64,000 bases of DNA. Source: Dictyostelium discoideum. Its lineage: Eukaryota. The stretch spans positions 2,816,001-2,880,000 of the forward strand of contig CM000155.2 of assembly GCA_000004695.1 (NCBI GenBank), read 5' to 3'. Below are positions 11,581-57,446 of the stretch, piece by piece. Below the pieces are notes generated by a model. The model was not told the DNA's origin and searched no databases. It worked only from the letters and a program-made list of their open reading frames with translations. The position numbers and the translations under genes are program-made. Within the stretch, counting starts at the first letter, position 1, and each line of letters begins with the position of its first letter.

Positions 11581-11680
11581 NNNNNNNNNNNNNNNNNNNN
11601 NNNNNNNNNNNNNNNNNNNNNNNNNNNNNNNNNNNNNNNNNNNNNNNNNNNNNNNNNNNNNNNNNNNNNNNNNNNNNNNN
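11581..11680. other. Assembly gap (100 N)
   Basis: Run of n. Confidence 1.
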
Positions 11681-20862: not shown

Positions 20863-20944
20863 GTAAGCTTGCCCGAGCTGGTCTAAGGGGTTGCATTAAG
20901 GCTGCAATATCATTGATACAAGGGTTCGAATCCCTTAGCTTACA
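20863..20944 (+). tRNA. tRNA-Leu (anticodon AAG), type II with a long variable arm
   Basis: It folds by hand. Acceptor GTAAGCT/AGCTTAC. A 3-bp D stem with a GAGCTGGTCTAA loop. Anticodon stem TTGCA/TGCAA with loop TTAAGGC (AAG, G37). Variable stem-loop TATCATTGATA. T arm AAGGG-TTCGAAT-CCCTT. Discriminator A. Confidence 0.85.
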
Positions 20945-22861: not shown

Positions 22862-23256
22862 TGAATTGGATAACGCAATTATTATTTGCTTCTCCTTGAG
22901 ATGCTAGATCTCATTTTATTTTTTTTTTTTTTTTACAGGGTCTTTTTGATTAAAACATCTTTTTTGTCCAAACTTTTTTCTAAATCTTTTTTTATTTTAT
23001 CGTCTGGTTCGTGATTGATGTTTATGACGTATTTGAATTGTTTTTTTTTTTTTTTAATTGAGTTTTATCCACAATTTCGCTTATTTTTTGTAGGCACCTG
23101 TGCTGCTTAATATTTGTGGTGTTCCAATTGCATCAACAAACCATTATCTGTNNNNNNNNNNNNNNNNNNNNNNNNNNNNNNNNNNNNNNNNNNNNNNNNN
23201 NNNNNNNNNNNNNNNNNNNNNNNNNNNNNNNNNNNNNNNNNNNNNNNNNNNTTTTT

Positions 23257-24200: not shown

Positions 24201-24274
24201 TGTCAGGTTGGCTCAGTTGGTAGAGCGTAGGTCTCATAATCCTAAGGTCCAGAGTTCGATCCTCTGACTTGACA
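24201..24274 (+). tRNA. tRNA-Met (anticodon CAT, elongator-like) with an apparent extra C in the anticodon arm
   Basis: Acceptor GTCAGGT/ACTTGAC. D arm GCTC-AGTTGGTA-GAGC. Anticodon region TAGGT-CTCATAA(T)-CCCTA. T arm CAGAG-TTCGATC-CTCTG. Discriminator A. A T-run follows. It is 74 nt because of one extra nucleotide relative to the canonical 7-nt loop. Confidence 0.7.
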
Positions 24275-24391
24275 CTTTTTAAAATCCACAAATGACGATT
24301 AGTAATTAAAAAAAAAACACATTACACCGCTTTTAGGTAAAAAAAAAAAAAAACAAAACAAACACATAAATCAAAAATTTTTGTAAAATTC

Positions 24392-24462
24392 GCCGTGATA
24401 GTATAGTGGTAGTACATCAGATTGTGGCTCTGTTGACCCTGGTTCGATTCCAGGTCGCGGCA
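24392..24462 (+). tRNA. tRNA-His (anticodon GTG)
   Basis: GCCGTGATAGTATAGTGGTAGTAC... closely resembles metazoan tRNA-His. Acceptor GCCGTGA/TCGCGGC. Anticodon loop TTGTGGC. 4-nt variable loop. T arm CCTGG-TTCGATT-CCAGG. Discriminator A. No encoded G-1, as in eukaryotes. Confidence 0.85.
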
Positions 24463-24463
24463 C

Positions 24464-26292: not shown

Positions 26293-26392
26293 NNNNNNNN
26301 NNNNNNNNNNNNNNNNNNNNNNNNNNNNNNNNNNNNNNNNNNNNNNNNNNNNNNNNNNNNNNNNNNNNNNNNNNNNNNNNNNNNNNNNNNNN
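26293..26392. other. Assembly gap (100 N)
   Basis: Run of n. Confidence 1.
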
Positions 26393-42754: not shown

Positions 42755-43253
42755 CCATTACAACCTCAACAATTTCAACCAAAACCACCTTACCAACAAA
42801 GACCACAGCAATTTAGCCAACAACAACAACAACAACAATTTAATCCAAATCAACAACAACAATTTAATCCAAATCAACAACAATTTAATCCAAATCAACA
42901 ACAGCAACAATTTAATCCTAATCAACAGCAACAATTTAATCCAAATCAATTTAATNNNNNNNNNNNNNNNNNNNNNNNNNNNNNNNNNNNNNNNNNNNNN
43001 NNNNNNNNNNNNNNNNNNNNNNNNNNNNNNNNNNNNNNNNNNNNNNNNNNNNNNNCCTATGAATAATCCTAATATTGTTCCACCACATTTTAATCAACAT
43101 CAACAACAAAATCATAACCAAAATCAACCACCTCATCATATGAATAATCCAAATATCATACCACCACCCCAAAGATTTAATAACTCAAATGTGGTGCCAC
43201 ATTTCAACCAACTATCAAATCAAAATCAACCACCCCAACGACCTCAATATTAA
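40788..43253 (+). CDS. WDR33/PFS2-like WD40 protein (pre-mRNA 3'-end processing factor) with a Gly-rich N-terminus and a very long Gln/Pro-rich tail. Exons 40788..41078 and 41270..>42955. The tail resumes after a gap at 43056..43253.
   Basis: [42 protein letters not shown] is the conserved N-terminal block of WDR33/Pfs2/FY. Seven WD repeats follow ([23 protein letters not shown] ... [14 protein letters not shown]). The GTATGT donor at 41079 and the TAATTAG acceptor at 41269 are in phase 0. The (CAA)n/(CCA)n tail is interrupted by the N gap. The stop is at 43251. Confidence 0.7.
42956..43055. other. Assembly gap (100 N) inside the WDR33 poly-Q tail
   Basis: Run of n. Confidence 1.
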
Positions 43254-51580: not shown

Positions 51581-52330
<750 letters not shown>

Positions 52331-52584: not shown

Positions 52585-52851
52585 ATGTCCCTTATGAACC
52601 AACAAGAATTAGAAGATTGGGACTTTAGAAGAATCATAATATCCACAAGAAATAGACTACTAGATATCCACAATACACACAATACACCAGAAGTCCAAAA
52701 CGCTATAGCCATGATAAATAATTTTTTGGAAGGCAATGAAAACCCAACCAGTTTATCAGATAGTCTTACTGGTATTCAAACAAATATTCCACTTGCCCAA
52801 CGACTTATCGCTAATTTAATCACAATGTTGAATAATCAACCAGCTCAATAA
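52585..52851 (+). CDS. ORF-D (88 aa) at the left edge of the compositionally foreign island. Function unknown.
   Basis: Open frame with non-host codon usage (CCA, CAC, CTT, GGC). No motif recognised. Confidence 0.3.
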   Translation: MSLMNQQELEDWDFRRIIISTRNRLLDIHNTHNTPEVQNAIAMINNFLEGNENPTSLSDSLTGIQTNIPLAQRLIANLITMLNNQPAQ

Positions 52852-53290
52852 ACCACAGTTCAAGAAACTACAGTTCAACAGTAAAATCTAAACTTAAATA
52901 ATGATTTTTACATTAAAACTATTAAATAAAATACAGATATATTTAAACATCATGAATTTCAAAGAGCGGACAAAGTTAAATTACCACTAATACCTGGTAT
53001 GTCTGATAAGATTGATAATAATAAAAATGGTGGCGGATTATCTCTATTTGAAATAAAACTCCCTATTGAGTACCCTTTTAATTCAATCCTATTTGGAATA
53101 AAGCCAATATCAGTGATTGGCACAGTGAATCGATTTTTAGTTTCTGTAAAGTGTCCATAAATATTGATTGTTTTTTCTTGATTTGGTTTGCACATTCTAT
53201 AATATTATACATAATATTATTTACTAAATTAATTATTGTCGGTCTTGCCCGACTTGATGCCAATGATACGAGGTCGTAGGAACGTAGTTC

Positions 53291-54651
53291 TTACAATTCA
53301 ATCAATGGTCTACCACTCATTCCATTATTAATAACACGATGTTCTTTTGTAACAACAAAACAATAATGAGAATTGTTATTTGCTGCAGTGAGATATACAG
53401 TTGCAGCATATGTTGGACTACGGTTATGAATTGGAATTCCTTTATATGTATTATCATTTGGAACATCTGATTGAGTACCATTGCAAAAATCTTGAATCCA
53501 GCACCAGTTATAGTTATTAATGTCACCAGACATGATTGAACTACCTTCTAATAATTTTTTATTTGTATCATAATCCATATATGATGGTGGAATTAATGGA
53601 TATGGGGTTAATGGTTGATTATCTAGACTAGTTTGGAAATTACTTACTAGAGTTGAAGCAATATCATTTTGAACTGGTGGTAAATTTGCAGTTGCTTGAT
53701 TTGTTGTAAATATTGAATAATAGATACGATCCAATGTTAATACTCTTCCACTTGGAACTGTAAAACTAATACTTTGAATATTTGAATTTTGAGAAGCTGA
53801 AAATGTTTGAACATTGCTGTATAAAATTGGAAGCCCTTCATTTAATTTATTACGTAATTGATCAATAATAATTTGATTTGTCTCAGTTGCAAGATATAAT
53901 GTAATATTTTGGATATTCATTGGAGCTTGAGTTAAATTTGGTGCAGCTGCTAATACTGGTGGACTTGCTGCAGTACCATAAAAACCAAGTGATGTTAATG
54001 GGTTTAATGTAAATTGCAATTGCATAATATCACCAAATATTAAATCTTTATCCAATGATAATATGGTATCATAGATATCACTAAGATAAATTTTTACTGA
54101 GAATTTAGTTGGTACATTTGCTGTTACAGCACCAATTAAATACTGACATTCACTATATGGTTTATCTGCTTGATTTGCTGTATTAATTTGATATCTGTAA
54201 TTTGTTGCATTATTTGATGCAAAACCTGGTGTAAATATAATAGTATCACCACCTGCATTTGGAAATACTTTTGCATAACGATTCATAGTTTGTTGTTGTT
54301 TACGATTTATTTCATTGTAGCTTTTGAATGTTGATGTGCTGATGTTAAATCGAGTAAATATTCACCACTACGCGATTGAAATGAAATTTGACTAAAGAAT
54401 GAAATGTAATCAGCGAATAAATATGGTACATTATTTGCACCACCAGCTGGAATGGTTAAATCAAATTGTAACCAACTTCTTGATAAATTATATACTGAAC
54501 TTGCACCAAGATTGAATTTTATAATTTGACCTTGTGAAGAAAGAGTTGTTGAAGTACCACTTTCTGGTTGAACGACATATGGTACATAACTTGGACCTGT
54601 TTCGTTAAAAGCGGTGTAATCTACTTGACTTGAATGAATTTCTCTTGACAT
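53291..54651 (-). pseudogene. Capsid-like ORF (about 445 aa in total), split by a +1/-1 frameshift near 54290-54306 into 114-aa and 331-aa pieces. It is beta-strand-rich with a jelly-roll-like composition and no basic arm.
   Basis: Two adjacent minus-strand ORFs (54307..54651 and 53291..54286) are separated by a single-nucleotide frame offset. GC is about 38-40%, versus about 25% in the flanks. The sequence is Asn/Thr/Ser/Gln/Tyr/Gly-rich with alternating hydrophobic patterns, typical of viral single-jelly-roll coat proteins. I cannot assign a family without homology searches. Confidence 0.4.
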
Positions 54652-54754
54652 TTTGTATTATATATAATAGAGTATAAATAAATAATATATAAATAATATA
54701 TAAATAAACCAAGCTTGAGCAAGGGGTGGTGGCCAGGTTTAAGGTCGGCACGTT

Positions 54755-55159
54755 TTATATCGTGGTAAGCGGCATGACGCTTTCGTTGTCTTTATGCGCA
54801 ATGTACTTCATAAAATCTTTATGCATATCATAATAAACTTCTTTTTTGAAAAAACACAAAGTAATATTTAAATCAATACCATTCAAATTAATAATTTCAC
54901 CATCACCATCAGTTAAACTAAATGTAAACCCATTTTGATTTGTTGATGTTAATCTTTTACTATATGCTTCAATTGCATTATTTGACCAATTAATATATGA
55001 ATAATCTAGGTTACCAGTTAAATAAATCTCTTGTAATATATCATCATTTCCATTACTACATATATTTGAGTGAATATAAACTACATTATCAATGTTGTAG
55101 GGAATTTTTTTTGAAATTTCGCTTTCTAAACGGCAGTGAATTTTTACACTAAAATACAC
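54755..55159 (-). CDS. ORF-A (up to 134 aa) in the foreign island, immediately downstream (minus sense) of a 14-bp perfect terminal hairpin
   Basis: Open frame. The inverted repeat GTGAATTTTTACAC (55136-55149) and GTGTAAAAATTCAC (55172-55185) overlaps the annotated N-terminus, so the real start is uncertain. Confidence 0.3.
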   Translation of the reverse strand: MYFSVKIHCRLESEISKKIPYNIDNVVYIHSNICSNGNDDILQEIYLTGNLDYSYINWSNNAIEAYSKRLTSTNQNGFTFSLTDGDGEIINLNGIDLNITLCFFKKEVYYDMHKDFMKYIAHKDNESVMPLTTI

Positions 55160-55309
55160 TGTTTATGCATGGTGTAAAAATTCACTAAAATTTTTTTTTT
55201 TTTATAATTAAATTAAAAAACAATTTATTTAATCAGAACAATAAAAAACCAATTTTATTCAGTTATTTGCTTGTTATTTATTTTTTTATAACAAAAAAAT
55301 TTAGTTTGC

Positions 55310-55349
<40 letters not shown>

Positions 55350-55437
55350 ATTTTTTTCAATTTTTTTTTTGTTTCATTTTTGGGGAATAAAATAAAATTG
55401 TTTGGATAAAAAAAAATTGAAAAAAATAATTGAAAAA

Positions 55438-55537
55438 NNNNNNNNNNNNNNNNNNNNNNNNNNNNNNNNNNNNNNNNNNNNNNNNNNNNNNNNNNNNNNN
55501 NNNNNNNNNNNNNNNNNNNNNNNNNNNNNNNNNNNNN
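55438..55537. other. Assembly gap (100 N)
   Basis: Run of n. Confidence 1.
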
Positions 55538-55792
55538 TTTCTTTTTTTTCAATTTTTTTTTTTTTTTTTTTCAAACATATTTACAAAGTTTTAAATTTAT
55601 TAAAACTAGTTTTATTTTATTTATTTATTTTATTTATTGGGTGATTTATTTTTTTCAATTAAGATTGTAGTTTTATTATCTTTTTTTTTATTTATGGGTT
55701 TTATTTATTTATTCTTTTTGTTTATTTATTTAAAATTATTATTTATTATTATTATTATTATTATTATATTATTATTATTATTATTATTATTA

Positions 55793-55848
<56 letters not shown>

Positions 55849-55853
<5 letters not shown>

Positions 55854-56900
55854 TTATTATTATTAATATTAAGATTTGATTGAGAAGGTAATCTTTTTGG
55901 TAAAATTTTAGATGGAGTTGATGGTGCAGTATTTTGATCAACTTTAGTCCAAATTTCTTTAGCAGAACCACCAGAAACTTAATTAGTTTGAGTAGTGGTG
56001 GTTGAAGAAGAAGAAAATGATGATGTAACAATGGTTTAGCAGTTACAACACTTTCAAGAGTTGGTAATTTTGGAGATGGTGATGGTGTAGTTGATAATGT
56101 TGAATTATCAATAGTTGTGATAATGATGAAGATGAAGGTGAAGATGAAGATGATTTTCTCTTTCTTTACCAAGGAAATCAGTTGATCAATTCAAAGAAGA
56201 ATTTAATTTTGGCATCATATTGCACCGACTGATGGTTTGCGTTGAATAAAACTTGTTGATCTGGTGATGATGGTATACCCCTAATTGTTGGGGATTATCC
56301 AACTGATACATTTGTAGTAGTATTACCACCAATATTATTACTACTAGTATTTAATGGAGTTGGAATTGGTGTTGATGAACTACTTAATGATGGTGAAGAT
56401 TGAGCTGATGATATCACATTATTATTATTATTTATTTTTTATTATTGATAACAACTGGAGTAACACTTAGAATTGTTTTGAAAGAAACCTTCACTATCTA
56501 ATTTTGCTGCTTTTGTTCTTTCATCTTTTGAAATTAATACCCAATTAAGTATTTTAATTTTGGTAATTCATTAATAACAATATAAACTCTTCACATTTCT
56601 TTAAATTAAATATAACTCTTTATGTGAATTTATAGATGATGTATTCAACAATAAAGTTACAGAATGGAAGTTACCAGAAACTTATTGGGATACCGAAAAC
56701 AGTTATTTTGATTTTGATGAAAAAGAAGAAGAATGATAAAGATACAATTAGAAAGCTCCAATCAATCAGTATTAAAATTAGAAGAAAGAAGACTAAATTT
56801 AACCGCTGAAATTGAGCGTATTTATGGTCAAATGGATCTAAAAAGAAAGGAATTGGAAAATGCAAACCTTCGTCTACATGTTTTTAATTAATACATTGAT
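55849..56900 (-). pseudogene. Degenerate coding region: gene fragments with in-frame stops, including a Ser/Thr/Pro-rich low-complexity piece and coiled-coil-like pieces
   Basis: Long codon-like stretches on both strands are interrupted by stops (e.g. ...NTSSNNIGGNTTTNVSVG*SPTIRGIP...). A plus-strand fragment reads LKLEERRLNLTAEIERIYGQMDLKRKELENANLRLHVFN*. Confidence 0.35.
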
Positions 56901-56950
56901 AAAAAAGAAGATGGCCAAAAGGAAAAAATAGAAGCAAAAAAGAAAAAATA

Positions 56951-57110
56951 TGTGTCCCATGCCAAAATTACCATATTAATTTCAGCAGCCATATTAATTT
57001 TGGCATGGGACTTATGTCTGCCAAAATTACCGTATTAATTTCAGCAGCCATATTAATTTCAGCATGCACATAGCTGCCAAAATTAATATGGTAATTTTGG
57101 CATGGAAAAA
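56951..57110. repeat. Complex palindromic structure. Two 40-bp direct repeats (GCCAAAATTACC(A/G)TATTAATTTCAGCAGCCATATTAATTT) are each closed by 16-20-bp inverted repeats (TCCCATGCCAAAATTA/TAATTTTGGCATGGGA; GCCAAAATTACCGTATTAAT/ATTAATATGGTAATTTTGGC).
   Basis: Reverse complements were verified by eye. The structure resembles nested TIRs or a hairpin element. Confidence 0.75.
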
Positions 57111-57446
57111 AAAAAAAAGTCAAAGTCATTTAATTAATAATCATCTCAAATATAAACAAAATTTTAGTACTAAAATTATTATTATTATTATTTTTATTAT
57201 AATAATTATAATAATAAAAAAAAAAAAAAAAAAAAATTTCATATTATTTTATTTATATCTTTTATTTATTTTTATCTTTTTATTTTTATTATTAATTTTA
57301 TAATTTATTTTCATTTCTTTTTTTTTTAGTTGATATATATTTTTTTATTATTCATTTATGTCTACGGCTCACAAAAAAATTATAAATAAAAAATTAAAAA
57401 TAAAAAAAAAAAAATAAAATAATTTTTTTTTTTTTAATTTTTTATT

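Follow-up and report, generated by a model that had tools for sequence, protein, structure and literature searches.

Elements closest to the locus

The thug-S family of Dictyostelium discoideum was reportedly defined by Glockner et al. in 2001. It is already catalogued in the reference genome of this organism and is already known as a source of small RNAs. Thug elements account for 0.1% of the genome and are one of its three DNA-transposon families, with no recognisable transposase (PMC5633606). The thug-S ends have been described as a source of miRNA-like RNAs (PMC4894637; PMC6161686), and one such pair, miRNA_can_D3, consists of a 21-mer and a 23-mer, AUUAAUUUCGGCAGCCAUAUU and UAUGGCUGCUGAAAUUAAUGUGG (Meier et al., PMC4894637, Table 2). 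The small RNAs from these ends are RbdB-dependent, being decreased in the rbdB- knockout and increased in agnA- (PMC4894637), and they are DrnB-dependent too according to earlier work cited there. The other DNA transposons of this organism that have long terminal repeats are Tdd-4 and Tdd-5 of the Ginger2/TDD superfamily, with terminal inverted repeats of 260 to 297 bp, termini starting with TGT, AT-rich targets and 5-bp target-site duplications (PMC2836005).

In this study, we analysed a stretch of 64,000 nucleotides from chromosome 6 of D. discoideum AX4 (referred to as the window; approximately 21% G+C, with long A/T runs), which contains a hairpin-forming block at positions 56951-57110. 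We assign a probability of about 0.93 to the reading that this block belongs to a thug-S class II (DNA) transposon as its End A, by which we mean the terminal repeat on the 3' side of the open reading frame (ORF). The probable assignment to the thug-S family comes from gene annotation and from the miRNA sequences rather than from alignment with a type or consensus sequence. As far as this comparison goes, no difference from thug-S was found: the ORF falls into the same cluster as a gene named as a thugS element, the element is multi-copy, and the published miRNAs map to its ends. The block is thus an ordinary one, since it is the end of a catalogued family with known small RNAs.

The hairpin block and the element it terminates

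The preliminary description of this DNA had reported two near-identical direct repeats, each paired with a reverse-complement arm, and these structures are indeed present. The direct repeats span positions 56960-57007 and 57019-57066 (48 nt, 94% identity), and their first 41 nt differ at a single base. The first stem pairs TCCCATGCCAAAATTA (56955-56970) with TAATTTTGGCATGGGA (56995-57010) across 24 nt, and in its full extent it is 17 bp long, GTCCCATGCCAAAATTA / TAATTTTGGCATGGGAC, occupying 56954-57011; in the second, which contains a single G/T mismatch, 57019-57041 is paired with 57080-57102 over 23 bp. The block as a whole is spanned by an outer inverted repeat (56957-56992 and 57070-57105), whose 36-nt arms are 92% complementary. 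When folded as single-stranded DNA, the block formed exactly the two hairpins described earlier, at -41.4 kcal/mol, compared to a mean of -18.9 kcal/mol (sd 2.9) for shuffled sequences, none of which was as stable (0 of 200; z = -7.8). Shorter words are repeated in excess as well, with three occurrences of the 21-mer TGCCAAAATTACCATATTAAT (allowing up to three mismatches) versus 0.06 expected, and six of the 10-mer GCCAAAATTA versus 0.6 expected, five of these six being inside the 150 bp of the block. Searches of Rfam with gathering and E-value thresholds yielded only generic sub-threshold miRNA-hairpin matches, the best being MIR5512 with 45.6 bits against a threshold of 139. The structure of the block is real and non-random, and it is fully explained as the end of a known transposon family.

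In the window, two gaps of 100 N (55438-55537 and 58168-58267) delimit the 2.6-kb stretch on which the block is located. The same locus is present without gaps in another D. discoideum assembly (L127), which is 99.6 to 99.8% identical and in which both ends of the element are visible; window positions 52592-55437 correspond to 11050-8211 of L127, and 55543-58162 correspond to 7953-5335 with 99.6% identity. The complete element in L127 (4981-6544) is 1564 bp long and carries a hairpin complex at both ends. Its portion in the window extends from 56953 to 58167, with the ORF on the minus strand, while the remaining 354 bp or so, which comprise the second end (End B) with the exact miRNA sequences, have no window counterpart (L127 5334-4981) and are hidden by the gap at 58168-58267, together with more DNA of the virus-like island considered below. 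The hexamer AATATG immediately outside End A (56947-56952) is the left copy of the target-site duplication, and in L127 it recurs immediately after the opposite terminus (...GGGACA|AATATG). The block had been likened to a pair of terminal inverted repeats; it is instead a single, internally self-complementary terminal repeat, whose partner lies approximately 1.4 kb away, as seen in L127, within the gap.

The idea of a mobile element, which was to be checked by looking for other genomic copies and for target-site duplications around them, has held up on both counts. More copies of thug-S lie at other loci, with ordinary host genes on their flanks (L126 and L129-L133); the element is approximately 1.56 kb long at the window locus and 1.56 to 1.98 kb elsewhere. 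The termini read TGTCCC...GGGACA in all six complete copies (one left end is mutated), and every one of the six is flanked by a perfect 6-bp duplication (ATTAAC, CATATT, GTTATT, CATAGT, TATATT and CGCACA). We also considered an 8-bp duplication of the hAT or P type and rejected it, as it needs one mismatch per copy, whereas a duplication of 6 bp, with T and A as the terminal bases of the element, is perfect in all six. As in other class II elements, terminal inverted repeats are present, here an 18-bp perfect outer repeat (TGTCCCATGCCAAAATTA / TAATTTTGGCATGGGACA) followed by approximately 200 bp of subterminal inverted similarity, and the target-site duplication has a fixed length, 6 bp in six of six complete copies. 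A transposase of its own was not found, as the sole ORF has no Pfam match, and neither an empty site nor an excision footprint was seen among the copies examined.

The more specific proposals made for the block fared less well than the general one. One of them was a MITE, with the two hairpins as both ends of a self-contained, non-autonomous transposon of approximately 150 bp. A resemblance to miniature elements does exist, both in the outer inverted repeat of 36 nt and in the terminal module of 58 bp, in which inverted arms of 17 bp enclose 24 nt. However, in every copy the block is followed without a break by approximately 1.4 to 1.8 kb of conserved internal DNA and by the other end of the element, and the 6-bp duplications flank an ORF-carrying unit of 1.56 to 1.98 kb, not the 150-bp block, whereas a MITE should be shorter than approximately 800 bp, non-coding and present in high copy number. 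The copy number of thug-S is low, with approximately 13 AX4 gene models (thug being 0.1% of the genome; PMC5633606), and a solo 150-bp copy is absent from the approximately 140 kb of D. discoideum DNA examined. It is therefore very improbable that the block is a MITE; it is part of an ORF-carrying element of 1.56 to 2.0 kb. For another proposal, a hairpin of the replication-origin type, nothing was found in support.

End A is a complete thug-S terminal repeat of approximately 204 bp (56953-57156, plus strand). It is conserved and near-identical in eight copies, and its inverted-repeat alignment with End B, itself conserved across seven copies, continues down to ...CATCTCAAATATAAA. Its outermost part is the terminal hairpin module (56953-57011, plus strand), consisting of a T and GTCCCATGCCAAAATTA, which forms the 17-bp stem, a 24-nt loop, and TAATTTTGGCATGGGAC; the outer arm of this module is the 18-bp perfect terminal inverted repeat. 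The second hairpin of 23 bp (57019-57102, plus strand) follows further inward. Ends A and B are inverted repeats of each other over approximately 200 to 230 bp and contain short motifs in both orientations. In End A, TAATTTTGGCA / TGCCAAAATTA occurs five times, as does CCATATTAATTT / AAATTAATATGG, and such an arrangement results in nested direct and inverted repeats and in hairpin folding. End B has an additional segment of 28 nt.

The two ends are not inverted throughout. When the ends are read inward, the terminal hairpin has the loop CCATATTAATTTCAGCAGCCATAT in End A and the reverse complement of this sequence in End B. On one strand, the terminal hairpin module of 58 bp is thus in direct orientation at both ends (L126, L127, L129-L131 and L133), while the rest of the approximately 200-bp repeat is inverted. 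As the module has the same orientation in all copies, this arrangement was already in the master copy. With such an orientation, recognition of the thug-S ends could depend on hairpins specific to one strand and not on the inverted repeats of the plain duplex. In another strain (L128, 5060-5840), a solo thug-S end carries an insertion of approximately 780 bp, itself bounded by inverted ends of 10 bp (ACACAGCAAT / ATTGCTGTGT), within the loop of the terminal hairpin.

The ORF of the window copy (57447-57926, minus strand) is annotated in AX4 as the partial gene model DDB_G0293432, the protein of which (P0011) is exactly the window translation. An in-frame stop at 57714-57716 is inside the stretch that this model removes as an intron, and the two sequences are identical residue for residue once the intron is removed. 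Several AX4 "hypothetical proteins" encoded on different chromosomes are 97 to 98% identical to the window ORF, showing that the element is multi-copy. When compared to the representative of its 90% identity cluster (cluster 4), the window ORF showed 97% identity over 61% of its length; this cluster contains DDB_G0271154 and DDB_G0270824 as well as the ORF of the L126-type copy. The first of these genes is given as "DDB_G0271154_TE, thugS element" in a 2025 expression table (PMC12405889), and homology to tdd-4 and thugS has been noted for the second (PMC3386910). The model of the latter (P0016), the one protein in which thug-S and Tdd are joined, is chimeric: its residues 1-165, which are 98% identical to the thug-S ORF, precede the Integrase_H2C2 and rve_3 domains of a Tdd-4-like element. 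The model thus points to insertions that are nested or adjacent, and not to a real fusion. The thug-S ORF itself (127 to 178 aa, low-complexity) has no Pfam domain and no recognisable catalytic domain, and thug-S is probably non-autonomous because its ORF lacks any Pfam match. Exact-protein look-ups with the window ORFs and with the AX4 proteins P0004 and P0008 gave no match.

Small RNAs and the two ends

Both published miRNAs of the miRNA_can_D3 pair match exactly in End B of one of the other copies (L129), where they are 63 nt apart from start to start, the same geometry as in the S4 table of PMC4894637. The published 21-mer alone is also found exactly in L127, in End B of the window locus, and in L128. 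End A of the window has one mismatch to each of the two published miRNAs. The corresponding 21-mer in End A, ATTAATTTCAGCAGCCATATT (56975-56995, plus strand; second copy at 57034-57054), differs from thug-S miRNA_can_D3-3p by one mismatch, with A where the published 21-mer has G. Five of the other loci (L129-L133) lie near five of the six published thug-S miRNA loci, an agreement in position that is only suggestive because the assemblies differ.

The predicted RNA folds of both ends, on either strand, contain long stems, with energies from -63 to -86 kcal/mol. Read-through transcripts of the ends would be expected to fold into stems of 45 to 50 bp that Dicer could process. The subterminal arrays of CACTA/En-Spm elements and the microRNA hairpins derived from transposon ends or MITEs may offer an analogy, in which short motifs in both orientations would likewise give rise to hairpins and Dicer products; there is no sequence or enzyme relationship between CACTA/En-Spm and thug-S, and CACTA duplications are 3 bp long.

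One may ask whether the block is a dedicated hairpin-RNA or microRNA gene, serving small-RNA production and not transposition. The miRNA-like RNAs published from the thug-S ends, lower in the rbdB- knockout (PMC4894637; PMC6161686), and the very stable predicted RNA folds would both be in line with such a gene, although the Rfam matches are generic and sub-threshold only. However, it is End B and not End A that contains the exact published sequences. The two 21-mers of End A, each with one mismatch, face the same way and are unable to form a duplex together, and the arrangement of a miRNA precursor is found in End B only. The small RNAs are compatible with a structured transposon end and are most simply its by-product. 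A dedicated small-RNA gene thus has only a slight chance of being the right description, and the transposon end is preferred.

Several gene models of the family, from AX4 and from newer strain assemblies (P0004, P0005, P0008-P0010 and P0012, and the one at L127 5001), start within the terminal hairpin of End B (MAAEINM...; MAAEINMVILAWDL...) and splice over the remaining repeat. This start is probably an annotation artefact. It is because the gene models begin inside the End B hairpin that the thug-S miRNA is called intronic in the literature.

The insertion site and the mobilising enzyme

The capsid-like ORFs next to the block end at position 55159, approximately 1.8 kb away, close to the 1.7 kb given earlier. 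The three ORFs (54755-55159, 54307-54651 and 53291-54286, minus strand) represent a single protein of approximately 550 aa in three pieces. Two of the three pieces are collinear with PPL_12645 of Heterostelium album, with 41% identity over the 331-aa piece, while the N-terminal piece of 134 aa was placed by eye, outside the alignment, by means of the shared motif YIHS.IC.NGNDDILQEIY. A profile search with the family recovered 1154 homologues, mostly 440 to 470 aa long, with zero Pfam or PDB sequence matches. One homologue, when modelled (pLDDT 87.7), matched the double-jelly-roll major capsid proteins of iridovirus (SGIV), PBCV-1, faustovirus, mavirus and Sputnik (E about 1e-12 to 1e-13, TM 0.5 to 0.6); a model of the capsid-like protein itself, made from four sequences, reached a pLDDT of only 38 and was unusable. 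Based on the homologue model, the capsid-like ORFs of the island may be assigned to a family with the double-jelly-roll capsid fold.

Beyond End B, L127 (1-4980) contains a 615-aa helicase-like gene model with a weak DUF5906 match plus other ORFs, none of which is in the window. The sequence GGIGKG in the 310-aa ORF of this gene is presumably a Walker A P-loop. The window is collinear with L001, the DnaJ locus from a sister species, and this collinearity breaks off exactly at the gap (58268/58277). Together with the genes present only in L127, this means that the gap at 58168-58267 hides several kb of the island, or else that the scaffold join is doubtful. What the gap hides is settled, namely the second end of the element and a further part of the virus-like island. 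The island into which the thug-S copy was inserted is thus virus-like and decayed, and the reference assembly contains only part of it. The motif of the block is absent from the orthologous DnaJ loci of D. cf. discoideum and D. citrinum (L001 and L002).

When the element and one copy of the duplication are removed, a continuous reading frame results, ...KKKKY|ELKRKQTLELKELKSECGEGPVLSKEESKELDDLERKYKRVGN*. The interrupted frame encodes a coiled coil and is composed of window positions 56733-56952 and L127 positions 4980-4800 (reverse strand). The target was probably already a pseudogene at the time of insertion, because there is an in-frame stop just upstream (HVFN*YIDKK). The window copy would be a fixed insertion, probably no longer active, within a coiled-coil reading frame of the decayed island. 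That the block might be a terminal repeat or origin-type hairpin of the capsid island itself can practically be dismissed. It is true that it lies 1.8 kb from the capsid-like ORFs and that virus-like elements with an integrase typically have long terminal repeats and make 6-bp duplications. The thug-S copy is, however, a separate insertion with its own 6-bp duplication within an island reading frame, and the same element is found at six other loci amid ordinary host genes, where genes for a capsid or a helicase are lacking in the vicinity. A short ORF at the edge of the island (51973-52197, plus strand), which includes ILADKGY, has a match to Pfam DDE_Tnp_4 (Harbinger/PIF-type transposase) that does not reach the curated cutoff (E = 9e-4), and it probably represents the remains of another DNA transposon.

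For thug-S itself, the outer 18 bp and the repeated subterminal motifs may be the binding and cleavage sites of a transposase supplied in trans. The TG...CA termini and the 6-bp duplication would fit an enzyme of the retroviral-integrase type (DDE). In light of these termini, the strict 6-bp duplication and the approximately 200-bp terminal repeats, mobilisation in trans by a retroviral-type (rve) integrase, possibly from capsid-encoding endogenous virus-like elements of dictyostelids, into one of which the window copy is inserted, can be put forward as a tentative and rather unlikely proposal. Polintons, as described by Kapitonov and Jurka in 2006, are said to make 6-bp target duplications and to have terminal repeats of hundreds of bp; their termini are AG...TC. 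Thug-S shares the 6-bp duplication and the long terminal repeats with Polinton/Maverick and virophage-type elements. Unlike Polinton/Maverick elements, it is only 1.6 to 2 kb long, has no polymerase, integrase or capsid gene, and has TG...CA termini.

The likeness to Tdd-4 and Tdd-5 includes the long terminal inverted repeats (approximately 200 to 230 bp in thug-S), the termini starting with TGT and the AT-rich targets. However, Tdd elements have a 5-bp duplication and an rve-type integrase, whereas thug-S has a 6-bp duplication and no recognisable enzyme. While Ginger2/TDD elements are characterised by a 4- to 5-bp duplication, TGTNR termini and an rve integrase, the corresponding features of thug-S are 6 bp, TGTCC (with C instead of R as the fifth terminal base) and no integrase within the element. 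Tdd-4 and Tdd-5 are not an obvious source of the enzyme because their duplications are 5 bp long.

The finding is mainly one of bookkeeping, as the block is a repeat that has already been annotated in the reference genome of a model organism, with hairpins known to give rise to small RNAs. The description of the ends (TG...CA, 6-bp duplication and same-orientation hairpin) could guide a search for the enzyme that mobilises this family.

The exact 21-mer had no match in viral contigs, and the plasmid collection gave no match. A pattern search of metagenome contigs (TGCCAAAATTA-N4-34-TAATTTTGGCA) gave more than 120 matches, and these were rejected as relatives after BLAST of the full 180 bp showed similarity limited to the two 11-mers; the matches of the pattern in viral contigs were three unrelated hairpins. 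Among the metagenome matches, the 78 with a 26-nt loop belong for the most part to a single, unrelated repeat family of moss-associated metagenomes, and the others are miscellaneous hairpins. Most of these 78 contigs (among L003-L122), many of which come from one set of moss-associated metagenomes, carry an unrelated repeat of approximately 130 bp that is rich in TGCCAAAATTA / TTGGCA motifs and often located where a contig ends; it resembles a small, high-copy repeat from some other organism. In addition to the two gaps next to the block, the window contains four further runs of exactly 100 N (11581-11680, 23152-23251, 26293-26392 and 42956-43055), and three tRNA genes are located at 20863-20944, 24202-24275 and 24392-24463.
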